Positions 8,019 through 29,181 of a stretch of 64,000 nt of DNA are shown here, piece by piece (the stretch's first letter is position 1; each line of letters opens with the position of its first letter). The notes beneath the pieces are model-generated. The model was not told the DNA's origin and searched no databases. It saw nothing but the letters and a program-made list of their open reading frames with translations. The DNA comes from a virus. The stretch lies in IMG/VR virus record IMGVR_UViG_3300042543_000303, positions 1-64,000 of that record; one strand, written 5' to 3'. A program made the position numbers and the translations under genes.

Positions 8019-9086
8019 ATGCGCGTTGCAGTGTACACGATCGCCCTAAACGAAGAGCAATTCGTCGAGCGCTGGGTAAGCAGCGCCGTAGAAGCCGATG
8101 TGCTTCTCATCGCCGACACAGGGTCCACAGACCGCACCGCTGAGCTTGCCCGCCAGTACGGCGTTGAGGTTGTAGACGTCCGCGTACGACCCTGGAGATT
8201 CGACGATGCACGCAACGCTGCGCTAGCCGCGTTGCCGCTTGACGTCGACTACTGCATAGCCCTTGACATGGACGAGGTACTTCTACCAGACTGGCGCGCC
8301 GAGCTCGAGAAGGCGCACGCCGAAGGCTGGACGCGGCCCCGCTACCAGTACACATGGAATTGGAACGAGGACGGCTCACCCGGACTCACGTACGGTGGCG
8401 ACAAGATCCACGCCCGCATCGGATATCGCTGGAAGCACCCCGTTCACGAGGTCCTGCGCAACTACGGCGACGTACAGGAAACCCAAGGCTGGATCGGGCT
8501 TGAAATCTACCACTTCGCCGACAACACGAAATCACGCGGGCAATACATGCCACTGCTCAAGCAGGCAGTCGATGAAGACCCAGCCGACGACCGCAACGCG
8601 TTCTACTACGCACGCGAACTTTACTACTATGGTCAGTACGACGAGGCTGTGCAACAGTTCATGCGCCACCTGTCTCTGCCGCGCGCCGTGTGGCCGCCCG
8701 AGCGCGCGGCTTCGATGCGCTTCATCGCGAAGTGTCGCCCTGACGAAGCCGAGTACTGGCTCAAGGCAGCTGCAAAGGAAGCGCCAGGGCGTCGCGAGCC
8801 GTACGTTGATCTCGCAAAGCATTACTACGCAAAAGGCGACTGGGCGAACTGCCTGAGTGCAGCCGAGTCTGCTCTTGCAATCACAGAGCGCCCACTTGAA
8901 TATCTATGCGAGTCGTACTCGTGGGGCGCAGCGCCGTGGGATTTCGGGGCGATTTCTGCATACCGCATGTCAATGTTTAAGAAGGCGCTCGAGTACGGTG
9001 AAAAGGCAGTCGCGCTTGAACCAGCGAACGAACGAATTGCGAAGAACTTAGCGTTCTACCGAGAGGCCCGCGGTGAAATCAGCTAG
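8019..9086 (+). CDS. Family 2 glycosyltransferase with C-terminal TPR repeats
   Basis: IALNEE, DTGSTD, FDDARNAAL, LDMDE (DxD) and HPVHE motifs, then a helical TPR-like region. Confidence 0.9.
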   Translation: MRVAVYTIALNEEQFVERWVSSAVEADVLLIADTGSTDRTAELARQYGVEVVDVRVRPWRFDDARNAALAALPLDVDYCIALDMDEVLLPDWRAELEKAHAEGWTRPRYQYTWNWNEDGSPGLTYGGDKIHARIGYRWKHPVHEVLRNYGDVQETQGWIGLEIYHFADNTKSRGQYMPLLKQAVDEDPADDRNAFYYARELYYYGQYDEAVQQFMRHLSLPRAVWPPERAASMRFIAKCRPDEAEYWLKAAAKEAPGRREPYVDLAKHYYAKGDWANCLSAAESALAITERPLEYLCESYSWGAAPWDFGAISAYRMSMFKKALEYGEKAVALEPANERIAKNLAFYREARGEIS

Positions 9087-9578
9087 ATACGCTCCTGTCA
9101 CCGCGTAGGTCTCATACTCGGTGATCCCCGGGAACGTGTCCATGACGCGCTCATGCGACCAGTCTTCAACGACATGAACCTCGTACGGGTTTCCGTGCTC
9201 GGCGCACTGTGGATAGTGAATGATCGGAATCGACATTAGCACTTTGCCGCTGGCTGATGCCGCCTTAGCCCACAACAGTCGAGCGTCTTCCTCGCTCATG
9301 TGCTCAAGAACGTCGCCAAAGATAACTAGGTCGCTTGACCAGTCGTTGAGCTCTCTCGCGTCCATGACAAGAACGTCATCGTAGATCGCGCGCAGACCAA
9401 ACTCGTCAATATACGGTTCCCAGGCTTCTACGCCGATCAGGTTAGCGTCTGCCGCGACGTCACGAACAATGCGGCCATAGGCGCCAGACCCTGGCCCGAT
9501 ATCGAGAACTGTTTGCGGCGCGATTTGTTCGATCGCTCTTGACATCCACGCCTTATTTGCAAAGTCCGAATGCGGCAC
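9048..9578 (-). CDS. Class I SAM-dependent methyltransferase
   Basis: VLDIGPGSGAYG motif I, IGVE, DLVIFGDVLEHM. Converges on the GT2 gene with a 39-bp overlap. Confidence 0.88.
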   Translation of the reverse strand: MPHSDFANKAWMSRAIEQIAPQTVLDIGPGSGAYGRIVRDVAADANLIGVEAWEPYIDEFGLRAIYDDVLVMDARELNDWSSDLVIFGDVLEHMSEEDARLLWAKAASASGKVLMSIPIIHYPQCAEHGNPYEVHVVEDWSHERVMDTFPGITEYETYAVTGAYLADFTAGLSVER

Positions 9579-10105
9579 TACTTAGATCCCTTTCGCGCGC
9601 GGGTAGTCTTGAGCGCTTTCTTTTCAGCGGCGCGACGCGTCTTTTCTTCTTTTTCACTTCTCTTTGCGTGGTACGCCTCGACCGCGTTCGCGCTGGTCCG
9701 ACTGCGCCATTTGAACTTGCATGACGAGCACTCGACCCAGCGAAGTGACGTCCAGCGCCCTCCGCCCAAAGACGAGCCTACGACTACGAAGAGCTTTCCT
9801 GGCCGCGCGCTGCAAAAAGGACACTGCGGAAACCTCTGCCTCCGTGATTCCTGCCCAACGTATGAAACAGAAAGAGCGCGACGGATTTCTCCTTCGTCGC
9901 GCCCGCCCCAAATGCCCCAGATTTGCCGATGTTCAAGAGCCCACTTTAAGCACTGCTCTCGAACCGGGCATTCGAAACAAATATTTTTAGCCTGGTACTT
10001 CTCGTCAGGGTTCTTTGAGAAAAACCAGTCTCTCGTGTGAGAGTACTCTGTTCGAGCGCAGATGGCATCCTTCTGCCACGCAAGCTCGTCAGCTGCTCCA
10101 CTCAT
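9578..10105 (-). CDS. whiB: WhiB-family Fe-S transcription factor with a C-terminal Zn ribbon and basic tail
   Basis: W..DAIC..WFF..AKNICFECPVREQC..GIWGG..E.R, plus extra CPFC and CSSC pairs. Confidence 0.92.
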   Translation of the reverse strand: MSGAADELAWQKDAICARTEYSHTRDWFFSKNPDEKYQAKNICFECPVREQCLKWALEHRQIWGIWGGRDEGEIRRALSVSYVGQESRRQRFPQCPFCSARPGKLFVVVGSSLGGGRWTSLRWVECSSCKFKWRSRTSANAVEAYHAKRSEKEEKTRRAAEKKALKTTRARKGSK

Positions 10106-10504: not shown

Positions 10505-10755
10505 GACAAGTGCTCGAGCCAGATCTTGCGTACGTTGCTCGCAGGAGTGACAACAGTCTCGAAAGGAACGTATGTGTCTTCGCCGGTCTTGCGGCAGGAG
10601 CACGACACGGCGATGCCCATGCCGCACGCGTCAGCTTCAATTGCGCGTACGATGCGGATTTGATGAGGCAAAGAGTCGTCCATGATCATCCAGGAATCAT
10701 CGTCTACTGGGACGCTGTGAACCAGCCTAAGATGCCCTCTAGTTTTCACACTCAT
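10501..10755 (-). CDS. Hypothetical protein (H..CSC..W..H, possible Zn binder)
   Basis: Overlap coupling to both neighbours. Confidence 0.6.
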   Translation of the reverse strand: MSVKTRGHLRLVHSVPVDDDSWMIMDDSLPHQIRIVRAIEADACGMGIAVSCSCRKTGEDTYVPFETVVTPASNVRKIWLEHLS

Positions 10756-11123
10756 ATTTTATTCACCGCTAGCCCGACTAGTTCTCCGACAGCGTCTCGA
10801 CTAGAAGGAATTTTGTACCAGTCACCAAGCCCGTGATCATACTCGTACACCGGTATAGCCGCGCTCATAGCCGCGGCTACTTCTACGCGCGCGCCGACAG
10901 ATTTCTTCCAGCCGTCAAGAACAAACACTCGCTGGCAACTAAAAATTCCAGATAGACACGACTTCATATAGTGCTCCCACGGTAGATCTGTTCTTCCCCC
11001 AAAGAGCTCAGTAGGATCAAAGACTTCATAGCCCGCTTCGCGCAGCTTTCGGCATAGAGCCGCAAATGCGCCGTAGTTGTGCCCATCTATGCCTGTCATA
11101 GGGCCGCTGATGTACGCCCGCAT
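10752..11123 (-). CDS. DUF4406 / nucleoside 2-deoxyribosyltransferase-like protein
   Basis: YISGPMTG..N..F..L..G..V.DP..W..YM..C..L.GW..S.GAR.E pattern. Confidence 0.85.
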   Translation of the reverse strand: MRAYISGPMTGIDGHNYGAFAALCRKLREAGYEVFDPTELFGGRTDLPWEHYMKSCLSGIFSCQRVFVLDGWKKSVGARVEVAAAMSAAIPVYEYDHGLGDWYKIPSSRDAVGELVGLAVNKI

Positions 11124-11245: not shown

Positions 11246-11755
11246 CTAAGCTGCCATGAAACCGTCTTGATGCGGCCACAGGTACTCGTATGAGCCCGGG
11301 GACGACCCTGGATCCTCCAGATAGTCAAACTGCGAGTACCACTCATAGTTCTTAACCAGCAGCGCGCGCCGATGCGTTGAGACAAGACGCGAGAAGTAGT
11401 CGCCGTCTTGCATCCACGACGGCAAGGTTAGCTCGGAACTGACTCGGCCGAGCTCAAGCGCGCGATCGAAGGTCGCAAACGTCTTGGGCAGAAGAGTAGA
11501 CTTGTAGCCTCGGGAACGCCACTCAAAATAGGTAGCTGAAATGTACGAGACAAGCAGCGCCTCGGAGCCGCGCCACATGCGCGTCACCGGGTGATTGACC
11601 CAGCCTTTCTGCTGACGGTCGTTGCCCTCAGGGTCAAGACAAGTAAGAGTAAGAAGTGTCTGCCATGCCTCAAGTGTCTGCTTGTGAAGTCTTTTATTGT
11701 CAAGCTGGCGAGCGGTAACTTCAAAGCTGCCAGTATCTACAAGAAATGTCTGCAT
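11246..11755 (-). CDS. Pyrimidine-dimer DNA glycosylase / endonuclease V-like protein (MSMEG_6728 type)
   Basis: MQTFL..LDNKRL.KQ..E..Q, GW.NHP..MWRG and STHR..LL.K..WY motifs. Confidence 0.85.
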   Translation of the reverse strand: MQTFLVDTGSFEVTARQLDNKRLHKQTLEAWQTLLTLTCLDPEGNDRQQKGWVNHPVTRMWRGSEALLVSYISATYFEWRSRGYKSTLLPKTFATFDRALELGRVSSELTLPSWMQDGDYFSRLVSTHRRALLVKNYEWYSQFDYLEDPGSSPGSYEYLWPHQDGFMAA

Positions 11756-11797: not shown

Positions 11798-13207
11798 CTA
11801 TCGCACTGTAAACACCTTGCCGCCGCCGGACCCCGGCTTCGCCTGCGGCAGTCTACGACTTGCAAATGATTTGGCAGTTAGCCGACCGCCAACAAATCCA
11901 GGCGGAGGCTTGATCAGAAGCGCAGTCATAGCATGAACTAGTGCGTCGATACGGTCAGGCGACTTACCCTCGCCGGGAATCCATGCGCACATCTGAGACT
12001 CTAGATCTGCAAGAATCCCGACATGGTGAACACGGGTCTGCTCATACGCAAGTACGACTGGCTCAGCGCGAAGCGCCTTGCCGTGCTTGCTGTGTACCTC
12101 GAGAACTTTAATACTCGGGTCGATAGCCTGAATTGCATTGCGCACAAGCGCGCCGCCCTGATTGACTTCGGCAACAACCGGCGCCTGCCACTTACGCGCC
12201 ATCGTGGCAACCGCGCTCGCCCAGACTTCAGGCGAGCCGTGCACCGTGGCATCTTCAACTACCCAGGCATGACGCTTATACAGATCGCGATCAGCCATTG
12301 CGGTGCATACCACGATGCCGCACTCATCGCGCGGGTTCTCAGCGACAGACGGGTCGACGCCGACAACGCGCAACGGCGCGTTCATCGGCAATGCCATTTG
12401 GCGCCCAGCCTCGATCATCTCCAACGTCCAGAGCGCGCCTTCAACGTCGTCGAGCATCTCGCCGTACAGCTCTTGCTGCGCCAGGCGGGTGCCTGCGTAC
12501 ACTCCGGTGATCGTGTCCAAGTACGCGCCAGATAGGTTACCCGCGTTGTCGAGCGTCGAGCCGCGAGAGATGTACACCTTGCCTGTGCGCTCGGCTTCGG
12601 AAATCAAACCATAGAGAACCGGCACGCGCTTTGGCGTAGTTGTCGCGATGATCTGCGGGTTAGAGCCAAGACGACAGGCGACGCGAAGGTTGTCCCACGA
12701 GGTCATACCAGCCGCGTCAGGCGTTTGCCGCCAGGCGGCAAGCTCGTCAGCCCAGGCGTAGTGTGCCTGGATACCGCGGAGGCCGTCAGGTTCATCGGCA
12801 GTGAACAGCGTCGCAGTGTTCCCGTTCGCCCAAGTAAGGCGTCGCTTGGATGGCTCGTAGTGCGGGCGCTCGCTTGGCGGACTGACATTGATGATACCGG
12901 ATTCGCCTTCAACAATGACGTCGCGAACGTCCGCCGCAGTACGGGCAACTAGCGCAAAGCGCAGTTGACCCTTGTTTGTGTACTTAGCCTTCTCACGTAC
13001 CCACTCCGCAGCGGAGCGAGTCTTACCTGCGCCTCGGCCGGCAAGGTACAGCCAGATTGCCCACGACTCGTCCTGCGGCGGTCTTTGCTCTGGTCGAGCC
13101 CACATCGACCAGTCCCAGACGAGCGCGTCCATGTCAAGACCTTCAAGCGCCGCTGCCTGCTCCTCCGGCGGCAACGTCGCAACGATCTCCATAAGGCTCT
13201 TGCCCAT
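11798..13207 (-). CDS. terL: Terminase large subunit
   Basis: Walker A AGRGAGKT, LRG.Q, Walker B AWADE, ATTTP, QELYG, nuclease VGVDP, AE.NQGG and SPDRIDA. Confidence 0.95.
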   Translation of the reverse strand: MGKSLMEIVATLPPEEQAAALEGLDMDALVWDWSMWARPEQRPPQDESWAIWLYLAGRGAGKTRSAAEWVREKAKYTNKGQLRFALVARTAADVRDVIVEGESGIINVSPPSERPHYEPSKRRLTWANGNTATLFTADEPDGLRGIQAHYAWADELAAWRQTPDAAGMTSWDNLRVACRLGSNPQIIATTTPKRVPVLYGLISEAERTGKVYISRGSTLDNAGNLSGAYLDTITGVYAGTRLAQQELYGEMLDDVEGALWTLEMIEAGRQMALPMNAPLRVVGVDPSVAENPRDECGIVVCTAMADRDLYKRHAWVVEDATVHGSPEVWASAVATMARKWQAPVVAEVNQGGALVRNAIQAIDPSIKVLEVHSKHGKALRAEPVVLAYEQTRVHHVGILADLESQMCAWIPGEGKSPDRIDALVHAMTALLIKPPPGFVGGRLTAKSFASRRLPQAKPGSGGGKVFTVR

Positions 13208-13214
13208 GCGTTAG

Positions 13215-13220
13215 ATCATA
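13215..13220 (-). promoter_or_regulatory. -10 box for a probably leaderless terL mRNA
   Basis: TATGAT 7 nt before the ATG, with no SD. Confidence 0.55.
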
Positions 13221-13240
13221 CCCTAAGATCTGCCAAATGG

Positions 13241-13298
13241 TGACTGCCCCGCGGGCGAAGTGACAGGGGCTATCACCTCAAGCGCCGCGGGGCAGCCA
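13241..13298 (-). terminator. Long bipartite RNA hairpin (terminator or processing site)
   Basis: On the - strand: 14-bp outer stem TGGCTGCCCCGCGG/CCGCGGGGCAGTCA and 10-bp inner stem GAGGTGATAG/CTGTCACTTC. The mismatches are G-U pairs only on this strand. Confidence 0.65.
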
Positions 13299-13331
13299 GA
13301 GATCTAATGTAACCTAGAGAGAATAAAGCTA

Positions 13332-13799
13332 CTACGCGCTTTCTCGAAGTGCCGCGCGCTGAACCCCGTAGTACAGAGGGGCGGCCGAACTAAGCCCGAG
13401 CTCCTCCGCCAGAGCGGCAAGAGACACGCCCTTCGAGTACTCGGCAGCAAGCGCGGAATGATACGCCTCGGCGCCACCGCTGTCTCGGGCCTTTGTCACT
13501 CTCTTAGCCGCGGCGGAGATCTCGGCCTCCGAGTACTTAACTCGGCCCTTCTTCATGGTCGAAGGAGGCAGCTTTGCGGTGAAGACGCGGCGGCGCATTC
13601 CGCTATACGCCACGTCTAGTTTTTCCGACAGCGCGACGAGACTGCCGCCATTCTCGTAGAACTCCGCAAGAAGTCGAGTATACTCCCGGCTTGCCTCGTG
13701 CGCCGGCGTAACCTGCGCGCGGGATCCATAGGCTCTTTTGGCAAGCGGCAATAGCGGCTTGATCTTCTTGGCGTACTGCTCGACGAGAGCGTCGCTCAC
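13332..13799 (-). CDS. Probable DNA-binding protein with tandem HTH-like repeats
   Basis: Internal duplication Y..LLAEFYENGGSLVALSEKL / Y..ALAAEYSKGVSLAALAEEL. AGGGAG RBS. Confidence 0.7.
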   Translation of the reverse strand: MSDALVEQYAKKIKPLLPLAKRAYGSRAQVTPAHEASREYTRLLAEFYENGGSLVALSEKLDVAYSGMRRRVFTAKLPPSTMKKGRVKYSEAEISAAAKRVTKARDSGGAEAYHSALAAEYSKGVSLAALAEELGLSSAAPLYYGVQRAALRESA

Positions 13800-13847
13800 T
13801 TTGTCTCTCCCTGTTGTTTGTCAGTGCGTTGTCTCGATGATGATTTG

Positions 13848-13860
13848 ATTATATTACATG
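13848..13860 (-). promoter_or_regulatory. Promoter CATGTAATATAAT
   Basis: Consensus TATAAT in an AT-rich gap. The same 10-mer CATGTAATAT occurs upstream of the capsid gene. Confidence 0.6.
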
Positions 13861-13886
13861 AGACACGAGAAATAAAATTAAGATTT

Positions 13887-13994
13887 CTAAAGAGGTTCGC
13901 CTTCGCAGCACGACGCCTTAAAACCGCAGTGCGGGCACAGCCAACGAGTGGCTACAGGAGAAAATCTCTCGCCGCAGGAGTCGCACTCAATCAT
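13887..13994 (-). CDS. 35-aa zinc-finger microprotein (not in the ORF track)
   Basis: MIECDSCGERFSPVATRWLCPHCGFKASCCEGEPL*. ATGA overlap with the upstream stop; CxxC, CPxCG and CC motifs. Confidence 0.75.
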   Translation of the reverse strand: MIECDSCGERFSPVATRWLCPHCGFKASCCEGEPL

Positions 13995-14239
13995 TCTGCT
14001 TGAACCTCTTGACCATCAGTTTTTACGTCGCCCCAGGCGATAGCACGGGCGAGCACGACTAGTCTCTCTGCCTCGGCATAGAGTTCTTCTGCGGCTACGA
14101 GAAGATCTGCCTTGTCCTCAATGCTTTTCGGCGCGGCTAGATCCGAAACTACAGCATTTGCGGTATACGCGCACGCGGCCATGCGACGAAGCGCGCGTGC
14201 CTGCGCGTCTTCGTACTGCCAACTTCGCTCGAATCCCAT
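13991..14239 (-). CDS. Hypothetical protein
   Basis: TACAAT (14252-14247) lies 7 nt before the ATG, a leaderless arrangement. Confidence 0.65.
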   Translation of the reverse strand: MGFERSWQYEDAQARALRRMAACAYTANAVVSDLAAPKSIEDKADLLVAAEELYAEAERLVVLARAIAWGDVKTDGQEVQAE

Positions 14240-14568: not shown

Positions 14569-15822
14569 CTATTCTGAGTACCAGCGCTTGCGCACGGCTT
14601 CACGGGAAAAGCCTTTGTCAAGGTTAAGAAGCCACTCACGATCACCAATGAGCTCCCCTTGCGGGCCAGTAGGCGTCCCCTTGATGGCGCCGTTGATAGC
14701 CTCGCCTAGCCACGTGGCGGCTTGCACTGGCACGGCCTTACCCCACACGGCCGGCAGCGCGCTGTACGTGCGAACGGGCTCGATAGCCCAGCCGTCTGGC
14801 AGCCCCTGCATCCGTGCTGCTTCACGATGCGTGATTAGACGCGGCTTTGTTGGGTGTACCACGTGATCAAGCGCTGAGCCGGTAAGAACGTTCGCCCAGT
14901 AGCGATCGCTCCACCGATACGGCGTCGAAAAGCCTAGACGGTAATCCTTTCTTCGAACGCCCTCTTCAAGATTCTTCCATGTCGGCGGGAACTCGCCCAG
15001 GTTATCAACTGCCTTTTTGAGCGCGTCACCTAGACTTTCATTGGCCATCCAGGCGTCGTCTTCGGCAATAGACGTGAAAACTTCCTCGACCCGTTGAGCG
15101 TGGATATTCGTTCGCCCCATGTGCCCGTCAACCTGGCCGGTCTGATTTCTCAGCGAACGCGTCCATTTTGTGTCGTCCCCGACGTATGGCTGCTCTTCCC
15201 ACTGATATGGCATATCGGCAAGGTCACCGATGACTTCCATGATCTTAGGCAACTCAGTGGGGTCGTCGCAGTGCGCACCAAAAGGCAAGCCCTTCTCAAC
15301 CGCTACCCAGAAATAACGCGGCCGGAACGAAAATCCGCCAAGACGCAGATTGTTGTGCTTGACGTGATACAGGTCGTATTCTTTGCCGCTTAGCTGTTCG
15401 AGCATGTCGCGGTATTGGAGCATTACCTCGCGCCCTTGAGTGTACGCCTGCTGCACACACTCAAACGAGACAACTGTCGGCTTCTGCCGCGCGGCGTACT
15501 GCATGAATGCACGCGTATGCACATGCGCCGGTGAATCCGGCCCGCGATATGTTGGCCCGCTAAACGGTGACCACCCTGAGCACGGAGGACACCCGACCAC
15601 AGCGTCCGTGTCGTCAAAATCCGGCCAGTCATCTGGGTCATCAGAGAACCAGGCGTCCCAGTACTCATCATCCGAGTTGAAGTGTTTACGGTTCGCTTCC
15701 GCGACGCGGTTACCAAAATCAAGAGTGCCGACTCGTCCTTGCATCTTCATTCCAGCATTTGCCATGCCAAGGCTCATAAAACCAGCAAGGCCGTTGCAGT
15801 CAACAAACTTCGGGGCACTCAT
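14569..15822 (-). CDS. Divergent DNA cytosine-C5 methyltransferase-fold enzyme (start revised to MSAPKF)
   Basis: Motif IV GCPPCSGWS, motif VI FECV (for ENV), motif VIII RPRYF, motif IX RLITHREAARMQGLPD, motif X WGKAVP (for GNAV). Motif I is altered to DCNGLAG. AAGGAG RBS before 15822. Confidence 0.85.
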   Translation of the reverse strand: MSAPKFVDCNGLAGFMSLGMANAGMKMQGRVGTLDFGNRVAEANRKHFNSDDEYWDAWFSDDPDDWPDFDDTDAVVGCPPCSGWSPFSGPTYRGPDSPAHVHTRAFMQYAARQKPTVVSFECVQQAYTQGREVMLQYRDMLEQLSGKEYDLYHVKHNNLRLGGFSFRPRYFWVAVEKGLPFGAHCDDPTELPKIMEVIGDLADMPYQWEEQPYVGDDTKWTRSLRNQTGQVDGHMGRTNIHAQRVEEVFTSIAEDDAWMANESLGDALKKAVDNLGEFPPTWKNLEEGVRRKDYRLGFSTPYRWSDRYWANVLTGSALDHVVHPTKPRLITHREAARMQGLPDGWAIEPVRTYSALPAVWGKAVPVQAATWLGEAINGAIKGTPTGPQGELIGDREWLLNLDKGFSREAVRKRWYSE

Positions 15823-15853
15823 GTGTCTCCTTCGTCGCGCGGTCGCCCTTACC

Positions 15854-16165
15854 TTACGCTGAGGTTGATCTGTTCTCAGTGATCTGGCCCACCTCATAGC
15901 CGCATCCCGCGTATCCGGCAATGTCGATCCAGGTGTCGGCCTGAAACCCGCCATTGACCAGTCGCGCCATCTTGACAGCGATCATTGCTGCCGCGACGTC
16001 CGATTCGGAGAATGGTCGCCCGAAGAGAACGGTCCAGATCCTAGCAATCCGGTTGAAATTCTCTTCTGGCCCGCCATACTGCTTGTCGCGATTACCGGCA
16101 ATAAGATCTGCCGCGGTACAAAGAGCTTCCTCGCGGGGGGTCTTCTTGCTTTCTTTGCTTGCCAT
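15854..16165 (-). CDS. DUF6378 family protein
   Basis: A..LI.G.R...YG.PEENF.RIA.IW..DVA..M...K.AR..DTW.DIAGYA pattern. Confidence 0.85.
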   Translation of the reverse strand: MASKESKKTPREEALCTAADLIAGNRDKQYGGPEENFNRIARIWTVLFGRPFSESDVAAAMIAVKMARLVNGGFQADTWIDIAGYAGCGYEVGQITENRSTSA

Positions 16166-16170
16166 GTCTT

Positions 16171-16380
16171 TTACCTCTTCATTCTTAGATGCACGGTTGC
16201 CTTGTACGCGCCATCGGCACTCATGTCTGAGTAGCTAGGAGTAATGTCGACTTCGATGTCGACCCGATTTTCAATTTCATCGATGCTAATCCCAAGAAAC
16301 TCTGCGACTGCGCGTAACGTCTTACCAGCAATCTCGTCGTACGTATCGCCTTGCACCTCTAGCTGCGCTGAAGCTCTCAT
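16171..16380 (-). CDS. Hypothetical protein
   Basis: TAATG coupling; operon position. Confidence 0.65.
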   Translation of the reverse strand: MRASAQLEVQGDTYDEIAGKTLRAVAEFLGISIDEIENRVDIEVDITPSYSDMSADGAYKATVHLRMKR

Positions 16381-16799
16381 TACTTGACTCTCTTCTCGAG
16401 CATGTACGGGCTATGATGCGCGCCTTCAATTGCCGGAGCCTTATCGTCCTCCGACTTAAAAATGACATCTCCGTATCGAATACCAACAATTCGTCCGCGC
16501 CGCCCGTTGTGCGCCGTTCCAGCTTCTCCCGTATACGCGTCAGCCTTAACTCGCACCTCATCTCCGACAGTGATTTGCCCCGGCTGCGCTTGAACCCAGA
16601 TCTCATCGGCAACGCTCTGAGGGATAAGCGCGTGCCCGAGTGCTACCTTGCTAAACACTTCAACTGTCTCGGCCGCTGACTTATCTGTGTGGTTCATTGT
16701 GTTCCACAGCTCCATAAGTCTTAGCACCGCCGTGCCAACCGACTGCTTAACTCTTGCCTGCGCGAATTGCTCGCGCACCCACTCTTCGCTAATCGTCAT
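16380..16799 (-). CDS. Hypothetical protein with an SH3/KOW-like C-terminus (start revised to MTISEEW)
   Basis: ATGA overlap with the dCTPase stop. ITVGDEVRV..HNGRRGRIVGI pattern. Confidence 0.7.
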   Translation of the reverse strand: MTISEEWVREQFAQARVKQSVGTAVLRLMELWNTMNHTDKSAAETVEVFSKVALGHALIPQSVADEIWVQAQPGQITVGDEVRVKADAYTGEAGTAHNGRRGRIVGIRYGDVIFKSEDDKAPAIEGAHHSPYMLEKRVK

Positions 16800-17269
16800 G
16801 CCACTACCTCGCACTTCACGCAAATTGTTGAATTAGAAACACTAACCCGGACTTCGTCAAGAGCCCTCGAGCAGACACCACACTTTACTCCAGCCTCGCG
16901 AACTTTGTACCCATCGCGCTGGCGCGCTCGATTCTTTTTCATTTTTTCTAGATAGATTTCGTCAAGCTCTTCGTCGGTGGCTCCAGCGGCGCAGATGATG
17001 TTAGCGACAAAATGCAGAACATCGACCGCCTCCTTAACTAGTTCTTCGCGGTCAAGGTACGGGTCATCGTGCTGCCACGGTTTCCACGACATTGCTTGCC
17101 GCATTTCGGCAAGTTCATCGTCAATCGCCAACATGTTCCAACGCATATACTCGATAGTGGCGTTGATATCATCAGGCGCGTTGCTGTGGAAGACCGAGTA
17201 CTTGGCTCCGTAGCACTCTTCCTGAAGCCTGGCAGTCTCCTTGAGCCAGTCTTGAAAAAGTCTTTTCAT
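16796..17269 (-). CDS. All-alpha dNTP pyrophosphatase (dimeric dUTPase / T4 gp56 dCTPase-like) with a C-terminal Zn ribbon
   Basis: DDELAE..WKPW..KEAVDVLHF..Y.EK..N..RQRDGY, then CGVC..CVKC. Start revised to MKRLF. Confidence 0.85.
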   Translation of the reverse strand: MKRLFQDWLKETARLQEECYGAKYSVFHSNAPDDINATIEYMRWNMLAIDDELAEMRQAMSWKPWQHDDPYLDREELVKEAVDVLHFVANIICAAGATDEELDEIYLEKMKKNRARQRDGYKVREAGVKCGVCSRALDEVRVSVSNSTICVKCEVVA

Positions 17270-17282
17270 TCTTACCCCTACT

Positions 17283-18308
17283 TCACTTTGATGAGAGCAA
17301 CAGCGTGTCGAGAAGATACTCAAGCGCTTTGCCTTTAGGCGTAATTGAAGATAGATAACTGTCCTTTTGCTGCGCGGCAAGACTATCTCGCCGCGCTTGA
17401 TTCATTTCGTCGACGGTAACGGCTAGATCCATCCACGGGTCACCAAGAATAGCAGACTCTCGCCAATCGGTAACGACTGGCACCCCTACGCCTATAGACT
17501 GGGCAACGCGAGGAGTCCACCATGACCCTGTCGGCTTAGACGGCGCAATAAGCGCGCCAACACCTTGCGACATCTGCGCAAGAACGTCACGATCTGCCCA
17601 TCCCTTGTGCTCTTTCATTGGCACGACATTGGTTTTCATTGTTGCTTGAACGCTGGCCGCCCACCGCGACTTCACATCGTCCACGACCCAGAATCTACTT
17701 CCATCGCTAGAAGAGAAAGTTTCTACGTCGTGTACCCGATCAAAAATTAGTGAGTCTAGATTCACTGCTCGAAGACTGTTAACCGCGTGGGGCGGGAGTG
17801 CGCTTGCAACCTTGCCCTGGTTTCCCCACGGCAGAATCGGGTACAAAGTTTCCGCCCAGGTGTACGAATTAAGATAGTTAACAGCGCCGTGAATCTTTGC
17901 CGCAGTTTCTGGCGTGCGTGCCTGCGCGTAGAACGGCCTAGCCGAATAGAAAGGCTTGAACATCGCGGCAGGAGATTCCTGCATCGCGTGAATGCTGTGC
18001 GCAATCTTTCCAGGGTCAGGCGCGTCAAGAAAAAGACGCAGCTTAGGGGAATCGCGCATCTCATTGATAACCCATAGCGCCGCGTACGCATGGTTAGCGG
18101 CGACGCTAGTGAGTGGCGATAGCCCAACGAACACGAGATCATAGTCCTCGAGCGCGTCTCTAGTCATTCCAAAACTCGGTGCGCAGATTTCGCTTGAATG
18201 CAGTTTGGTGCTGAGCGCGCTGGATAGAAGTCCGGCAAATGACACCGAGCGCTCTGCGTATTTTTTCGACGCCTGAGGCGCAGTCATCCCAGTGATAAGT
18301 GTTTTCAT
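17283..18308 (-). CDS. GT-B-like glycosyltransferase, putative DNA glycosyltransferase 2
   Basis: Paralogous to 18553-19734 (MK.L..G.T; D..FV.L.PL.S; WWTPR vs WWRSR). The fold is inferred from the pattern only. Confidence 0.55.
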   Translation of the reverse strand: MKTLITGMTAPQASKKYAERSVSFAGLLSSALSTKLHSSEICAPSFGMTRDALEDYDLVFVGLSPLTSVAANHAYAALWVINEMRDSPKLRLFLDAPDPGKIAHSIHAMQESPAAMFKPFYSARPFYAQARTPETAAKIHGAVNYLNSYTWAETLYPILPWGNQGKVASALPPHAVNSLRAVNLDSLIFDRVHDVETFSSSDGSRFWVVDDVKSRWAASVQATMKTNVVPMKEHKGWADRDVLAQMSQGVGALIAPSKPTGSWWTPRVAQSIGVGVPVVTDWRESAILGDPWMDLAVTVDEMNQARRDSLAAQQKDSYLSSITPKGKALEYLLDTLLLSSK

Positions 18309-18556
18309 TCGCGCCCGCCCGCGGGCTCGTCAACTTCACCAATTTCATCAAGAACAGCAGGTAGCGCGTCTAGCACGCGTTCGACATCCTCGCACGCGAT
18401 ACTCCCCCAGTTAAGCGCGTCGTCTCCAGCCGGGTAGCTGTTTGGGAACCACGCGGCAAGAAGAGCTTGCGCTAGTTTTCTTATGAGCTGATCTGTTACA
18501 TGCTCTGGTAAGTATTCTTCTGGGAAGCTTGTTTCATTGATCTCCGTGTACGTCAT
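18305..18556 (-). CDS. Hypothetical protein
   Basis: ATGA overlaps on both sides. Confidence 0.65.
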   Translation of the reverse strand: MTYTEINETSFPEEYLPEHVTDQLIRKLAQALLAAWFPNSYPAGDDALNWGSIACEDVERVLDALPAVLDEIGEVDEPAGGRE

Positions 18557-19734
18557 ATCTTGAGTCCTTTGTCTTCTCGTACTGCACGGTGAACGATTTG
18601 ATCGCAGTGCGCGATAAATGAATCGTAGCTTGGTATGTACTGCCGTAGCGCGTTCTGCTGCGTGATCGCGAGCTGCGCGAGCTCGGCGTCTGATAGACGC
18701 TCAATCTCGGCAATACTCAGCCGGTGGCAGTCACCAAGCGGCGCGCCTTCGTTCTTGTCCGCGAAGAGAACTGAACCTACACGCGCGGAGTACATGAATC
18801 GACTACGCCACCAGCCAGACCCGGCGTGCGGGTACGGCGGAGACAGAATACCCCAGTGCTCGTTGTAGAACGCGAGGACGTCCTGTTCAGTCTGAAGGCG
18901 CTGACCGCCGAGCTTGCGAACCAACTTGCGCGACCCGACAATTTCGACAGGCCACTCAAAGCGTTTCTTCTCAAGCCACGTGTCGTGCGGCATTAGCGCC
19001 CCAAGCACCCACGCGCGTTTCTTGCTCTCTGGCGGCAGCGCTGTGACGCTGTCAAGAATAGAATAGATCGTCGAGCTCGGGTCAAGCGCCTCGATCGCTG
19101 AAAGCTCTTTCGGCATGCGCTTGCGTACCAGTGAACGATCGCCCCACGCGTACATTGGGCACACAGGCACCATGCCTGCCCCCCAGCGCGCCCCGAGCAA
19201 GTTTCGCGCAGATTCGACAAGCATTGCGTCGTAGTCGCGAACAGACTCGTCAGTCTCCGTCATATAGTAGCGCTCGATGTAGATCTTGGCGTTAGGGTTA
19301 ATGGCTAGCGCGCGTTCCTTGGCAGCTACAGCGTCCGCGTGACTAAAGTACGTGGCGCCCTCCTCGCCGCGATCCTTGCCGACAAGAAGATATTTGTAGA
19401 TCATCTCGGGCTTGCGTATCAACGCCTTTGCACCATTGAACACGGTGGAGAACTGCCAGTCATCAAAGAAACCCACGCAGGGTTTCCCGCTAGCAAGAGC
19501 GTAAAGCGCGCCCATAGCGCCTTGTCTTCCGTTAAGTGAGTTTAGGGGCGCGAGGTTCATCCAGATGACATCGAAAGACGATAGGTCTTCGCCGGGTGTC
19601 ACCTTGCGCCACTCGACCTCATGCCCGGCGCTACGCAGCGCGTCAACGATTGACGCAGGTACGTCAATCTTTGAGATTGTACGCTTGTCGGTGTTGATCT
19701 GCAGGGCAGTAAACCCTGACATCAAGATTTTCAT
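18553..19734 (-). CDS. GT-B-like glycosyltransferase, putative DNA glycosyltransferase 1
   Basis: MKILMSG..DALRSAGHEV Rossmann-type start typical of GT-B. FFDDWQ. C-terminal GIL.PPY..GWWRSRF....GSVL resembles the T4 beta-glucosyltransferase/CgeB-type donor-binding helix. Confidence 0.65.
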   Translation of the reverse strand: MKILMSGFTALQINTDKRTISKIDVPASIVDALRSAGHEVEWRKVTPGEDLSSFDVIWMNLAPLNSLNGRQGAMGALYALASGKPCVGFFDDWQFSTVFNGAKALIRKPEMIYKYLLVGKDRGEEGATYFSHADAVAAKERALAINPNAKIYIERYYMTETDESVRDYDAMLVESARNLLGARWGAGMVPVCPMYAWGDRSLVRKRMPKELSAIEALDPSSTIYSILDSVTALPPESKKRAWVLGALMPHDTWLEKKRFEWPVEIVGSRKLVRKLGGQRLQTEQDVLAFYNEHWGILSPPYPHAGSGWWRSRFMYSARVGSVLFADKNEGAPLGDCHRLSIAEIERLSDAELAQLAITQQNALRQYIPSYDSFIAHCDQIVHRAVREDKGLKI

Positions 19735-24788: not shown

Positions 24789-26623
24789 CGGTACTTATCT
24801 CCCCATGTCTCAAGCGGACCGTCAATGCCGGCGGTAAGCGGGACGTCCCAGCCGTCTGAAGTTGTCATACACTCTTGCACAACCTTCATGATCTCGTGCG
24901 CCTCACGGCGCGGCGCCTGCAGCACAATCTCGTCGTGCACCGGCACAATGAGATGCTCGGTGAGATCTGCCTGATCGAGCTTGACGAGGTTCTGCTTAAA
25001 CACCTCGGCGGCGCCACCCTGAATTAGATAGTTGACAAGTGTGTACACGCGATTCTCATCGCAGGGGATTCGGCGGCCTGTCCACGTGTAGACGTAGCCC
25101 TGCCCTTCCGAGCGTAATCTCCGCATTCCAGTGTCTTCAATCTTGCGCTGGAAGTCGGCCATGCCCGGGTAGCGAATGTCAAATGCGTCTGATACTGAAC
25201 GCATCTGCGTCTCAGGCACGCCGGCAGTTAGCGCTTGCTTCGCGACGCCCGCTCCGTATAGGCGACCATAGACGGTGCCCTTGATCAGATTACGGCGCTT
25301 GTCGCTCTTTTGCATGTCTGGGTCTTGGTAGATTTCGCGACCAATCTCCGTGAACGGGTCCGAACCCGTCGCGTCCGCGCGGTTAAACAGCGTGATCAGA
25401 TTGGGGTCGCCAGACAGCGACGCAAACATGCGAAACTCAACCTGGTCGAGGTCGGACGTGATAATCACGTGATCCTCGTCCTTTGGAATGAAGGCGGTAC
25501 GCACCGTGTCATCGCCCTTCGGCAGCGTCTGCAGCGCAGGGTCGGTAATCGACATCCGCGACGTGCGCGCCCCGAGAGTCTTCACCGACGGATGAACGAT
25601 TCCGTCGATAGACTTGGTCAGGAAGTTCTGAAAGTACGTGCCAGCAAGCTTGTCCGCCTTGCGCTGCTTAAGCACAATCTCGGCGAGCTGCTTGACCTCG
25701 TCATTGCCGTAGATCGTCAACATTTTGAGCTGATCCTTGGTGCACGACTTCTGCCCGGTTGGCGTCATCTCTGTGATCTCCGCGCCGAGGCTCTCAAACA
25801 AGCGCACGAGTTGAATGTTACTTGTGATCGACGTCCCGCCGTACGTTTGCTTGGCCCATGTCTTAACCGACTCGGTGTACGCGGTCAACTCGTCATACTT
25901 GCGCTGCGAATAGTCCAAGTCAATTCGTGCGCCGTTAAGTTCCATGCGCGTGACGATGCGCCGTGCCGCCATTTCGAGTTCGTACGGGCGATTGTAAGGA
26001 CCGCCTGGGCCACACTTCTCCCAGAACATGTGCCACAGGCGCATTGTCAACACGGTATCCAGCGCGCCGTACGCCCAGTATGGCTGGAAGTTGATCGGTA
26101 CCGTTCCCCACGTCCAGCCGTTCTTGGCCAGCTCTGTGTCCAGCGTGTCTTGCAGCGCGACGGCGCGCCCGTCAACGTGCAACGCTGCAAGTCGCTTGAG
26201 CGCGCCAGAGCCTAGCGGGTCGATGATATGAGCCATGATCATCGTGTCGTGCGCGCGATGCCATGGAATTTCCCAGCGCGAACGAATGTCAAACCAACGC
26301 GCCTCGAACGCGATGTTGTGGCAGACGATAGGACCGTCGAAGCGGCTCATGGCTTCGTAGAAGACACCAGACCATTCTTCCCAGGGAATCGACCACCCTT
26401 GCTCGCCGTCGCCAACCTGCACAAGTCGCAGACGCCCGTGCCATGGCGATAGCGCATGATCACGTGGGTTGCCTGGGAGCTCGCCGGTCTCAGTGTCTAC
26501 AGCGATCGCGTTCAGTGGGCGTCGTTCACTTAGCCAGCGCAGAAACTCACCTGCTTTGTCGACAGAGTCGACAAGGTGAAGTTGAACGTCGCCCAGATTA
26601 CCAGTATCAGACAAGAACGTCAC
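24785..26623 (-). CDS. polA: Family A DNA polymerase with a 3'-5' exonuclease domain
   Basis: Exonuclease DTET, HN..F and YGALD. Motif A DLDQVEFR, motif B R...KGTVYG..YG, motif C VHDE. Confidence 0.96.
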   Translation of the reverse strand: MTFLSDTGNLGDVQLHLVDSVDKAGEFLRWLSERRPLNAIAVDTETGELPGNPRDHALSPWHGRLRLVQVGDGEQGWSIPWEEWSGVFYEAMSRFDGPIVCHNIAFEARWFDIRSRWEIPWHRAHDTMIMAHIIDPLGSGALKRLAALHVDGRAVALQDTLDTELAKNGWTWGTVPINFQPYWAYGALDTVLTMRLWHMFWEKCGPGGPYNRPYELEMAARRIVTRMELNGARIDLDYSQRKYDELTAYTESVKTWAKQTYGGTSITSNIQLVRLFESLGAEITEMTPTGQKSCTKDQLKMLTIYGNDEVKQLAEIVLKQRKADKLAGTYFQNFLTKSIDGIVHPSVKTLGARTSRMSITDPALQTLPKGDDTVRTAFIPKDEDHVIITSDLDQVEFRMFASLSGDPNLITLFNRADATGSDPFTEIGREIYQDPDMQKSDKRRNLIKGTVYGRLYGAGVAKQALTAGVPETQMRSVSDAFDIRYPGMADFQRKIEDTGMRRLRSEGQGYVYTWTGRRIPCDENRVYTLVNYLIQGGAAEVFKQNLVKLDQADLTEHLIVPVHDEIVLQAPRREAHEIMKVVQECMTTSDGWDVPLTAGIDGPLETWGDKYR

Positions 26624-27101
26624 TTTCGTCTAGTGTCGAATGAAAAACGTCAACCTTCAATCCGCAAGCGCGCAGATACTTGATGACGAGCTCGGGCTTA
26701 CGATGCGCGTCTGCCTCGCGCAGGCGCATAACAACTCGAACAAGCCCCGAGTTGGACACTGCCTTTGCGCACGACATACACATGCTTTCGGTTACGTAAA
26801 TCGTCCCGCCCTCTACCTGAGTGCGATCTACGTAGAGTAGCGCGTTGAGTTCACTGTGAATGCTGGGGCACTGATCGTATGTGTTATCTAGCGGAGTTAT
26901 CCCTTGAGCTCTTGGGCAGAACTCGATGCAGTCACCTTCACTTGGGTAGGTTGCCGCTGGGCCGTTGTAACCGGTCGAGCAGATACGATTATTGGCGGAC
27001 ACAACAACAGCGCCGATACCAGCGCGTGTGCAGCGACTCCGCAGCGCGATCGTGTCAGCCACAGACATCCACGCCTCGTCCCACGTCAGCCTGCCATGCA
27101 T
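26607..27101 (-). CDS. dCMP deaminase (start revised to MHGRLTWDE)
   Basis: WD..M..A...A.RS.C, TGYNG, HSE.NAL and CMSC motifs. Confidence 0.9.
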   Translation of the reverse strand: MHGRLTWDEAWMSVADTIALRSRCTRAGIGAVVVSANNRICSTGYNGPAATYPSEGDCIEFCPRAQGITPLDNTYDQCPSIHSELNALLYVDRTQVEGGTIYVTESMCMSCAKAVSNSGLVRVVMRLREADAHRKPELVIKYLRACGLKVDVFHSTLDESDVLV

Positions 27102-27102
27102 A

Positions 27103-27291
27103 CTAGTCGTCCTCCCGAGCGTCCTCAATCGCCGATCCGGCGCCAAGAACGATGCTACGGGCGATCAGATCAAGCGCCTCGCGACGCGTAAAGCCGGCGC
27201 GCTTAAGTTCCTGGTAGAGTTCGTGCATTTGAATGGCACCGGCAGCGAGCGGGCTCATGTCATTTGTTGGTTCACTATTCTCATTCGCCAT
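27103..27291 (-). CDS. Small hypothetical protein (start revised to MANENS)
   Basis: HELY..L..AGFT..EAL.L helical motif; GAGGAG RBS. Confidence 0.7.
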   Translation of the reverse strand: MANENSEPTNDMSPLAAGAIQMHELYQELKRAGFTRREALDLIARSIVLGAGSAIEDAREDD

Positions 27292-28171
27292 TGCTAGTCT
27301 CCTCAGTAATCTTCTTGGCCTTTTCTTCATTGTTGCGAATCGCGGTTACCATCGAGTTAGTAAACCACTTTTCGTGATCCTGCAAACGGTCATAAAGCGC
27401 CTGATCAAAGACAGCCTTTAGACAACCAACGGCACTAGCAGACACTTCCTGCCAGATTCGACCAGTGATGTATGGAACCGGTACGCCATCTGTTGCGTAC
27501 TCAAGACTTTCGGCTGCCGCATAGTGCTGCTCATAGATGTGCAACGAACCAACGTGGTGCGCGTACGTCCCGGGCTCAATGCCTAGCACTGACGCAATCG
27601 CAATCTGCACGCGCGTAAACTGAAACCAGTCATATGCGGCGCCGAGCCAAATATCATTCGAGCGCATGTACACACTCATGTTGAGCTTGCCGTTACGAAT
27701 GCGGAACTGATGCAGCACCGTGCACGGATAGTCGCGCTTACTTGGCTGCAGATCGAGCTTTGGGTCCCAGATGGTTACGACCGCCTGCCGCGTATCCGGG
27801 TCTTTCTTAAGCCGTTCAATGACGTGCTCGTATTGTCCCCGAGTGCGCGGGCCGTACGCTCCATGAAACAGCCCATTGTTCTCAGCGTAGTTCGCGAACT
27901 GCGGGCCAACCGCAATCACAAGCTCAGGAGCGCTCACCCCCGCAAGAAGCTGCAGCGACTCAACTGACGCAATACCCGGCACCGCACCGCGCTTAACACC
28001 AAGTGGCAGTGTGTTATACACGTCATCGATGACGATCACCGCGTCCTCAATCTCGCGCGTCTTCATTCCACGCGGCGCGACTTCGTCACCGTTCTCAAGC
28101 ACCCAACGAACAACGTCGACGTACCCGTTGACTCCGTCGGCAACGTGCTTAATTTTCATTGCAGGATCCAC
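27281..28171 (-). CDS. Thymidylate-synthase-family enzyme with a dCMP-specificity Asp (probable dCMP hydroxymethylase or methylase)
   Basis: YG.R, DTRQA, PCT (catalytic Cys), MRSNDIWLGAAYD (Asp where ThyA has Asn) and SLHIYE. Confidence 0.85.
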   Translation of the reverse strand: MDPAMKIKHVADGVNGYVDVVRWVLENGDEVAPRGMKTREIEDAVIVIDDVYNTLPLGVKRGAVPGIASVESLQLLAGVSAPELVIAVGPQFANYAENNGLFHGAYGPRTRGQYEHVIERLKKDPDTRQAVVTIWDPKLDLQPSKRDYPCTVLHQFRIRNGKLNMSVYMRSNDIWLGAAYDWFQFTRVQIAIASVLGIEPGTYAHHVGSLHIYEQHYAAAESLEYATDGVPVPYITGRIWQEVSASAVGCLKAVFDQALYDRLQDHEKWFTNSMVTAIRNNEEKAKKITEETSNGE

Positions 28172-29181
28172 TGAGCGCTCCCTTGTATCTCTTCGCCACG
28201 AGCGAGTCGCTCGATAGCCTCACCGTATTTTGCCTTGTCGCTAGAATGAAAACGTCGAACGTACTGCGGATGCGCCAGCGTTCCGGCCATCTCAAATTCA
28301 AGACCAGCGTCAATCGCAGCCCGCTCGGCCTCGCGGCCTAGCGAAATTACTCGCGGGTAACCAAGCGCCGACCATAAACCGTGTAGACGTTCAGTGTCGG
28401 CAAGATCGTTCGCGTTGACGATACCGAGCTTTGGCCAGGCCTTCTCGGGCAGCGAGTCAAGAAGGAACTCGCCTGAGTTGCCGCCAACAGGCATGAATGG
28501 GAGACGGGTCTCGTCGCCGTACAGCTCGGTGACATTACGCTTGTCTCCAAGAATAAGAGCGCGTGGAGTTGTTGGCCCGATGTACTCGGGGTACTCAGTG
28601 CGCAGCTTAAATGTCTGCCGCGTAGAGAATCCCGCGCGATCAACCACGGCCTTCGCAATTCCGCGCAGACTAGAAGTATCATTTGGTTCTGGCACCAGAC
28701 GCTCGACCACGGACGGGGCAACAGTCATACCAAAGTCATAGCGCTCAACGATCGCGTCGAGTTCGCCGACCGATACAAAATCATCGCCGCGGGACTCAAG
28801 GCGTGTTCGAAGAACATCGAGCGGCTGGCTGAGAATCCACGTTGTCGCTCCGCGGGACATAAGAAAAAGCTCAACCCATCGCCAGCCTGCGCGCCCGAGT
28901 AAACCGTACCCGTCTTTGTTTGTGTGAGGGCGCTTGAGCGGTGCGTACGTGACCTCGCCCCAGTGCCAACGGTCCGCGACGATACACGCTCCAGACGTCG
29001 CGAGTTCGTCAATCGACAAGACGTATTCATTGAGCACCCATCGCCGCGATTCCTCGAGAGGGCGACCCTTATGAAAATGGTGCGCGCTATGAACTCCGCA
29101 CGACACGCTTAGGTGGTGCTCGAGCGCTCCAAGCATTGAGCTCTTACCGGCCGCGTCTGGGCCTTCGATGATGATAAACAT
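28156..29181 (-). CDS. Thymidylate-kinase-like dNMP kinase fused to a uracil-DNA-glycosylase-like domain
   Basis: IIIEGPDAAGKS P-loop and DR.H..E..Y. C-terminal YIG..LILGD..PF..SG.FL..N..LG..A..HPQY follows the UDG-superfamily motif order. Confidence 0.75.
   Translation of the reverse strand: MFIIIEGPDAAGKSSMLGALEHHLSVSCGVHSAHHFHKGRPLEESRRWVLNEYVLSIDELATSGACIVADRWHWGEVTYAPLKRPHTNKDGYGLLGRAGWRWVELFLMSRGATTWILSQPLDVLRTRLESRGDDFVSVGELDAIVERYDFGMTVAPSVVERLVPEPNDTSSLRGIAKAVVDRAGFSTRQTFKLRTEYPEYIGPTTPRALILGDKRNVTELYGDETRLPFMPVGGNSGEFLLDSLPEKAWPKLGIVNANDLADTERLHGLWSALGYPRVISLGREAERAAIDAGLEFEMAGTLAHPQYVRRFHSSDKAKYGEAIERLARGEEIQGSAQWILQ

Follow-up and report, generated by a model that had tools for sequence, protein, structure and literature searches.

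A virus-only C5-methyltransferase-fold enzyme with a conserved lysine in its predicted donor pocket, linked to hydroxymethylcytosine-pathway genes of actinophages

We analysed a stretch of 64,000 nucleotides (nt) of viral DNA (hereafter the window), i.e. positions 1 to 64,000 of the IMG/VR record IMGVR_UViG_3300042543_000303 (73,960 bp, around 44 % complete), which derives from an uncultured lake actinobacterial phage. The study centres on a minus-strand gene for a protein of 417 amino acids (aa), P0001, which has the fold of the cytosine-C5 DNA methyltransferases and bears a lysine in place of the canonical asparagine of motif X. It is accompanied by genes for a DUF6378 protein, a MazG-like pyrophosphatase and two candidate glycosyltransferases, and the window also encodes a deaminase, a thymidylate synthase (TS) homologue and a kinase-like protein of a predicted cytosine-modification pathway (Table 1). 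A longer form of 461 aa would start at an ATG at position 15954, but homologues span only 90 % of it; since the homologues are 411–425 aa long and a Shine–Dalgarno sequence, GAAGGAG, lies just ahead of the downstream ATG, the latter was taken as the start. The protein scored 66.1 bits with Pfam PF00145 (cut-off 22) and 29.4 bits with NCBIfam TIGR00675 (dcm), below the cut-off of 100.65. Its AlphaFold2 model, built from an alignment of 88 relatives, reached a pLDDT of 95.7 and a pTM of 0.94, with DNA-bound DNMT1, ZMET2, MET1, the prophage methylase 3G7U and M.HaeIII as the best Foldseek matches. DNA near-identical to the locus is present in lake metagenomes from many studies, and assembled contigs of two independent freshwater DNA runs contain it without insertions or deletions; a single RNA run gave three short assembled contigs, all on neighbouring genes and none on the enzyme gene.

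The protein has the C5-methyltransferase fold with intact residues for attack on C6 and for cytosine binding: Cys81, Glu121 and the pair Arg167/Arg169 line up with their counterparts in M.HaeIII and hardly vary across the family. On the side that binds S-adenosylmethionine (SAM) in ordinary methylases, the canonical FxGxG is replaced by DCNGLAGF, the acidic residue of motif II by Gly32 and the Gly-Asn of motif X by Gly-Lys. Read from the sequence, all motifs sit where a first-pass annotation of this DNA had placed them, and its assignment of the lysine to the motif X asparagine held as well, HMMER putting WGKAVPV on IGNAVPV of M.HaeIII with both the single sequence and the family profile. Asn10, Leu12 and Gly32 were placed at canonical SAM contacts by the family-profile alignment; as a single sequence, residues 1–67, i.e. 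the SAM-binding half, gave no alignment to any solved methyltransferase. As judged from these alignments, the donor pocket is conserved and lacks the canonical SAM contacts, and Lys362 is a conserved cation at the spot predicted to face the transferred group.

Searched exhaustively, 1.84 billion cluster representatives yielded 529 relatives at E ≤ 0.001, from which the top 150 (28–67 % identity) were taken as a distant set; a close set comprised 121 homologues with 57–88 % identity. The stretches DCNGLAGF, R-T/V-G-T-L, GCPPCSGWS, FEC/SVQQ, FRPRYFW and WGKAVPV are invariant or nearly so in the close set, and both Gly32 and the motif X lysine are found in 121/121. Because the changes are fixed in all close homologues, they reflect neither chance nor erosion, and the remodelled pocket of the first-pass annotation is thus no product of decay and stands under strong purifying selection. 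Among the distant representatives, motif X has Lys in 139/147 and Arg in 3/147, an interchange that speaks for the binding of an anion or oxygen. The residue after PPC is Ser in 109/124, motif VI reads E-S-V in 131/141 and E-C-V in 7/141, the RxR is invariant, and the position of the canonical motif I Phe is never Phe, being occupied by Gln, His, Asn, Glu, Tyr or Met. The motif II Glu is retained in 82/124. Two pocket classes can be told apart, which may simply be clades: class A, with Phe or Tyr at position 12 and Glu at position 32 (73/119 representatives), and class B, with Leu at position 12 and no Glu, to which 34 representatives including the window enzyme belong, as does gp120 of Gordonia phage Sixama. 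The window enzyme carries the complete signature of the Lys-type clade, i.e. Lys or Arg in motif X, Ser after PPC, E-S/C-V and no Phe in motif I.

Table 1. Features of the enzyme gene, of the predicted pathway and of neighbouring or otherwise mentioned genes in the window
Feature	Position	Strand	Remarks
Lys-type C5-methyltransferase-fold enzyme (P0001)	14569-15822	-	417 aa; translation, PF00145, AlphaFold2, Foldseek
Shine–Dalgarno sequence	15827-15833	-	GAAGGAG, 4 nt before the ATG at 15822; sequence reading
Motif I	15778-15804	-	VDCNGLAGF; Asn10 at canonical Phe, Leu12 at first Gly of FxGxG
Motif II region	15709-15738	-	GRVGTLDFGN; Gly32 at canonical ribose-binding Glu
Motif IV	15568-15594	-	GCPPCSGWS; catalytic Cys81 at 15580-15582; Ser82 replaces Gln of PCQ
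Motif VI	15448-15468	-	SFECVQQ; Glu121 retained, ENV changed to ECV
Motif VIII	15307-15327	-	FRPRYFW; Arg167 and Arg169
Motif IX	14788-14838	-	Intact
Motif X	14725-14745	-	WGKAVPV; Lys362 (AAG, 14737-14739) at Asn position
DUF6378 protein	15854-16165	-	Directly upstream of the enzyme gene; in 79/80 related loci
MazG/dUTPase_2-like all-alpha nucleoside triphosphate pyrophosphatase	16796-17380	-	Candidate dCTPase; adjoins the enzyme gene in most lineages
GT-B-like glycosyltransferase candidate 1	17283-18308	-	Atlas structure neighbours GT4/GT1, TM 0.6-0.69; lead only
GT-B-like glycosyltransferase candidate 2	18553-19734	-	ESM Atlas feature neighbours; lead only
dCMP deaminase	26607-27146	-	
TS homologue, dCMP hydroxymethylase signature	27281-28171	-	Best solved match MilA CMP hydroxymethylase
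P-loop dNMP-kinase-like protein (P0122)	28156-29181	-	Extra C-terminal domain
147-aa protein	16380-16823	-	Between MazG and enzyme genes
Large terminase gene and two small open reading frames	11798-14239	-	Between enzyme and glycosylase genes
T4 endonuclease V-like pyrimidine-dimer glycosylase	11246-11755	-	PF03013
DUF4406/nucleoside 2-deoxyribosyltransferase-like protein	10752-11123	-	PF14359 (2e-22), phrog_355
WhiB-domain protein	9578-10105	-	Domain at residues 10-76, C-terminal extension of around 100 aa
Small class I methyltransferase	9048-9578	-	Methyltransf_11/25/23; 176 aa
GT2 + TPR glycosyltransferase	8019-9086	+	phrog_13126
Very long open reading frame	58671-63869	-	More than 1,700 codons; open at the window edge; head-gene region
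Repeat within the very long open reading frame	61590-61730		Weak match to the C-terminal extension of P0123

In the collections searched, the Lys-type family is confined to viruses. When one genome from each of 185,579 bacterial and archaeal species was scanned by pattern, no true relative emerged; the top matches were partial and 24–37 % identical. Among 50,697 phage records the enzyme is carried by just 15, every one an actinophage, i.e. Actinomycetia phage DSL-LC01, 13 Gordonia phage records (Sixama, Forza, Boopy, BlueNGold, Mareelih, Phendrix, GodonK, GMA2) and Micrococcus phage Kurnik. A megablast search with the locus against the phage collection gave zero matches; complete relatives of the window phage are around 130 kb long and have terminal repeats. 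Literature searches on Sixama, Kurnik and GMA2, and the MetaGPA paper, yielded no data on the DNA bases of these phages.

The best explanation for the motif pattern is that the protein acts as a DNA-directed, Cys-dependent cytosine-C5 enzyme, and we infer that its reaction is probably not ordinary SAM methyl transfer. It shares with the canonical methylases (M.HaeIII 1DCT, M.HhaI, CP-933R 3G7U, DNMT1/ZMET2) the fold, the order of motifs IV–X, the catalytic Cys, Glu and RxR and a DNMT1-like target-recognition region, whereas the motif I Phe and first Gly, the Gln of PCQ, the Asn of ENV and the motif X Asn are replaced by residues that are themselves conserved, and the motif II Glu is replaced in the window subfamily. 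The Pfam score above threshold, the intact state of every chemistry-side motif and the annotation of the family as DNA methylase in databases would suit an ordinary SAM-dependent 5-methylcytosine methyltransferase with a divergent cofactor site that protects residual unsubstituted cytosines or specific sites, and engineered Asn-to-Lys enzymes retain some SAM activity. Such an enzyme, however, would not be expected to conserve the replacements of its lost SAM contacts, to match no solved methylase over residues 1–67 or to fall so far below the dcm cut-off; members of its family should turn up in prophages and bacteria, yet the species scan found none; and the strict link to hydroxymethylation genes described below would stay unexplained. 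We therefore consider ordinary methylation improbable. It is also reasonable to suppose that an ordinary methylase would be redundant if the same operon already fills C5 at the level of deoxycytidine monophosphate (dCMP).

This last point leads to the TS homologue, whose motifs RSNDIWLGAAYD and RDYPC were judged by published rules (PMC13326640), according to which Asp at the positions of N177 and L143 together with D169 is the signature of a dCMP hydroxymethylase and not of a methylase or a 5-hydroxycytosine synthase (PMC13326640). The window protein has Asp at the positions of ThyA N177 (AYD) and L143 (RDYPC) and retains D169, on account of which a 5-hydroxycytosine synthase was rejected. In the adjoining kinase-like protein, which resembles deoxynucleoside monophosphate (dNMP) kinases, the kinase residues span around 1–190 and are followed by a C-terminal domain of around 150 aa without a family match; kinases next to the TS homologue in other lineages have only around 160 aa.

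The Asp-type TS homologue is present in 16/18 carrier records, and the two records without it are fragments that are 9 % and 21 % complete, in line with a pairing of the GKAV-type enzymes with this type of TS. In the cultured-phage set, the closest TS homologues come from 14 records, which are the very ones that encode the enzyme. The earlier placement of the enzyme gene within a cytosine-modification pathway was likewise borne out. GKAV-type homologues are accompanied by the Asp-type TS homologue and by glycosyltransferases wherever the record is of a sizeable length. Judging from this gene content, the best explanation is that the Lys-type branch is a fixed component of a predicted actinophage pathway that would replace cytosine with (glycosylated) 5-hydroxymethylcytosine (5hmC).

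The neighbourhood was compared across 80 related viral loci, which show a conserved order of genes for PolA, a resolvase-like protein, SNF2, PD-(D/E)XK, AAA_24, DUF669, two GT-B-like proteins, MazG, small open reading frames, DUF6378, the enzyme, the endonuclease V-like glycosylase and WhiB. Neither of the two GT-B candidates in the window has a Pfam match; the feature neighbours of candidate 2 include a cluster that is 100 % PF09198 (T4 glucosyltransferase; score 0.94). The cassette of sugar genes, MazG and enzyme recurs at 30–88 % identity in lake phages, Sixama and Kurnik, and at 32–38 % identity it survives in other viral lineages, Sixama and Kurnik. In those lineages the sugar genes vary, with other glycosyltransferase families and, at locus L098, a nucleoside diphosphate (NDP)-sugar epimerase, and MazG and the enzyme are constant. 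A third lineage (L088-L090) has MazG grouped with the deaminase, the kinase and the TS homologue, and the enzyme gene after a primase-polymerase gene.

Several further genes of this region deserve mention. The 147-aa protein encoded between MazG and the enzyme is conserved in 73/80 loci and resembles the Thoeris inhibitor Tad3 weakly, below the threshold (PF25185, E 4e-4), and the WhiB-domain protein is conserved in 65/80. The terminase insertion is confined to the window phage and to L001, the relative closest to it (1/80 loci), i.e. it is a local rearrangement, which puts a packaging gene within the replication and modification block. The DUF4406-like protein (1/80 loci) could act in a modified-nucleotide pathway by hydrolysis or exchange of a nucleotide base. 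The small class I methyltransferase occurs in just 3/80 loci and is therefore no fixed partner of the C5 enzyme, and its gene overlaps the 3' end of the convergent GT2 + TPR glycosyltransferase gene.

The endonuclease V-like glycosylase is encoded near the enzyme in 74/80 loci, and its role may be the repair of ultraviolet (UV) damage or may be tied to the modification system. Its presence as a glycosylase and apurinic/apyrimidinic lyase would agree with an anti-host weapon, i.e. an enzyme that turns on unmodified host cytosine by covalent trapping, C5 protonation or deamination without a cofactor, to which the phage's own C5-substituted DNA would be immune. The restriction of the family to phages with 5hmC-pathway genes and its absence from cellular genomes, as if it were toxic to ordinary DNA, fit such a weapon too, as does a built-in cation where the SAM sulfonium would be. 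Still, this idea is pure inference, the pocket is conserved beyond the needs of an empty site, the Arg variants make a role as proton donor less likely and the glycosylase may serve UV repair only, so that we regard it as distinctly unlikely.

Lower still do we place an RNA target, e.g. tRNA as for DNMT2, or a non-catalytic DNA-binding or base-flipping factor, either of which seems very improbable. The Sixama cassette does come after a large tRNA array, and the family profile weakly matches a tRNA C38 methyltransferase (6FDF, E 5.5e-4). On the other hand, no tRNA genes are found in the window, by sequence as well as by structure the best matches are DNA-bound DNA methyltransferases, and the invariant Cys, Glu and Arg residues favour catalysis.

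The lysine in motif X invites comparison with two enzymes that use carboxy-SAM. One is CmoX of Synechococcus phage S-B43 (PDB 8YF3), which has Arg350 at the motif X Asn position and requires CmoA (PMC12783734); like the window enzyme it is phage-encoded, has the C5-methyltransferase fold and the PPC nucleophile, bears a cation at the motif X Asn and belongs to a DNA hypermodification pathway. The phage survey for CmoX used SPPC plus Arg as its criterion (PMC12783734); the window enzyme has CPPC and most of the family NPPC, and the position of HhaI Asn304 (R350 in CmoX) holds Lys362, of the same charge, with Arg in 3/147 relatives. The window enzyme further differs from CmoX in its rebuilt motifs I and II, in its link to a dCMP hydroxymethylase and in that no CmoA partner was found. 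An amide ligase (CmoY) or ParB-domain protein did not appear in a Pfam scan of around 30 window neighbours, no search dedicated to them having been made. The other enzyme is the engineered M.MpeI N374K, with the same Asn-to-Lys change at the same position, which keeps a normal SAM pocket and needs CmoA-made carboxy-SAM in E. coli (PMC12783734); the Lys-type family, in contrast, is natural, has many further pocket changes and lacks a detected CmoA.

CmoA (TIGR00740, E ≤ 1) was absent from all nine carrier records searched (G000-G003, G006-G008, Sixama and Kurnik), five of which are complete genomes (G001, G002, G007, Sixama and Kurnik). Nor did it exceed the cut-off in any of 301 genomes drawn evenly from the Actinomycetota, in a sample centred on G014, the three best scores being 132–152 bits against a cut-off of 193; with G015, the source of the match of around 132 bits, and G240 removed because they are flagged as unpublished, the tally is 0/299. 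A universal phage class I methyltransferase as maker of a special donor was not found, class I methyltransferases that might make one being absent from G002, Sixama and Kurnik. The family profile matched CmoX with an E value of 5.5e-12, M.HhaI with around 1e-17 and M.HaeIII with 2e-25; because the fit to CmoX is poorer than that to ordinary methylases, the cationic motif X residue is probably of independent origin. Thus the carboxy-SAM version of the first-pass annotation is weakened by the lack of CmoA in these carriers and in the Actinomycetota sample, and by a family profile that lies no closer to CmoX than to ordinary methylases.

The same data bear on a broader possibility, namely that a non-methyl anionic group is put on the unsubstituted C5 of cytosine from SAM or a SAM-like donor, whether carboxymethyl from carboxy-SAM or 3-amino-3-carboxypropyl from a newly posed SAM, with Lys362 binding the carboxylate. 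Its likeness in position to CmoX Arg350 and M.MpeI N374K, the swap of Lys and Arg within the family, the change of the PCQ Gln to Ser, which makes room for a bigger group, and the motif II Glu retained in most of the wider family would all suit such a transfer, and the recurring class I methyltransferase fusions described below could tailor a transferred carboxyl or amine. Nevertheless, with no CmoA, no universal phage-made special donor and a poorer fit to CmoX than to M.HaeIII, and given that the motif II Glu is lost in the window subfamily and that C5 should be occupied already in 5hmC DNA, we hold it to be rather unlikely.

Fused and extended relatives offer another view of the possible chemistry. 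Within the distant set, a C-terminal cluster with an FkbM/FtsJ-like class I methyltransferase domain was found in 6/150 (Pfam-confirmed in P0144, P0177, P0210 and P0267) and one with a Methyltransf_23 domain in 4/150 (Pfam-confirmed in P0166, P0171 and P0195); a search for longer proteins added two more Methyltransf_23 fusions of around 1,000 aa each and nothing further. By sequence, the fused class I domains are UbiG-like and not CmoA-like. Another six relatives (6/150) share an extension of unknown fold, a winged helix-turn-helix being detected in P0141 only, and one (1/150), P0207, contains an intein with a LAGLIDADG domain. The C-terminal extensions of the longer relatives matched no window gene; that of P0123 gave a weak match to a repeat in the very long open reading frame.

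One relative, P0223 (1/150), is fused to the helical domain of 5-hydroxymethyl-2'-deoxyuridine (5-hmdU) DNA kinases (HMUDK_hel, PF18723). A second such fusion, 39 % identical, was found in a soil metagenome (L119, 3308-5704, plus strand) and also keeps the Gly-Lys, so that both HMUDK-fused relatives retain the motif X lysine. P0223 had zero matches in viral contigs and one 5.7-kb metagenome relative, with recombination genes alone beside it. The 5-HMUDK systems (PF18723) share with these two relatives the kinase helical domain and would share with the family a post-replicative chemistry on a 5-hydroxymethyl pyrimidine, but they act on 5-hydroxymethyluracil with other transferase folds, and the window phage has no HMUDK.

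Taken with the pathway genes, these features lead us to favour, tentatively and at less than even confidence, a covalent chemistry on 5hmC in phage DNA in which Lys362 would hold a leaving or anionic group. Its more specific form, that the enzyme derivatises 5hmC already in DNA by replacing the hydroxyl group, or its activated ester, with a different group, is a little more doubtful. Ordinary C5-methylases can attack 5hmC, forming covalent complexes, and dehydroxymethylation has been reported as a side activity (PMC11347137). In the mechanism that we propose, the substrate would be 5hmC already present in the phage DNA; Cys81 would add to C6 and so form an enamine, which would drive out or exchange the oxygen borne by the 5-methylene carbon, Lys362 making a hydrogen bond or salt bridge to the leaving or anionic group. 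Space for the C5 substituent would come from Ser82, which is smaller than Gln, and a co-substrate in the remodelled pocket would then add to the methylene, yielding a further-modified cytosine at a subset of sites. Such chemistry on 5hmC would explain why the family is strictly linked to the hydroxymethylase and missing from cells, why the pocket is enlarged on its C5 side (i.e. Gln to Ser and Asn to Lys) and why DNA-kinase fusions occur.

Several points weigh against this proposal. The co-distribution with the TS homologue may be largely inherited with one replication module, and since the lineages share this module, the co-occurrence represents few independent events. No HMUDK-type DNA kinase occurs in the window phage or its complete relatives, nor in Sixama or Kurnik. 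The class I methyltransferase fusions (10/150 and the two longer proteins) fit a tailoring of a transferred group equally, and members of pocket class A could still bind an adenosyl cofactor. Neither a co-substrate nor an extra base is known for any carrier phage.

The glucosylated-5hmC pathway of phage T4 (gp42, gp1, gp56 and the glucosyltransferases) shares the nucleotide-level gene set and the GT-B-like transferases with the carriers described here, and we know of no component with the C5-methyltransferase fold in T4. The enzyme is the sole fixed component of the 5hmC-type pathway without a T4 counterpart, and the donor pocket of its family is not explained by ordinary methylation. The family is large, with at least 529 clusters at 50 % identity, is frequent in lake metagenomes and is currently annotated as plain 'DNA methylase'. 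Enzymes that place or exchange non-methyl groups on cytosine C5 are wanted for epigenome sequencing and DNA labelling, and cultured carriers, i.e. the Gordonia phages Sixama and GMA2 and Micrococcus phage Kurnik, make the question directly testable. Once solved, the reaction would either extend the known DNA base modifications and the known uses of the methyltransferase fold, or show the limits of drift in a SAM site. If the derivatisation of 5hmC proves true, widespread actinophages would bear an undescribed cytosine hypermodification, made by the natural use of a reaction so far known just as an in vitro side activity of methylases.

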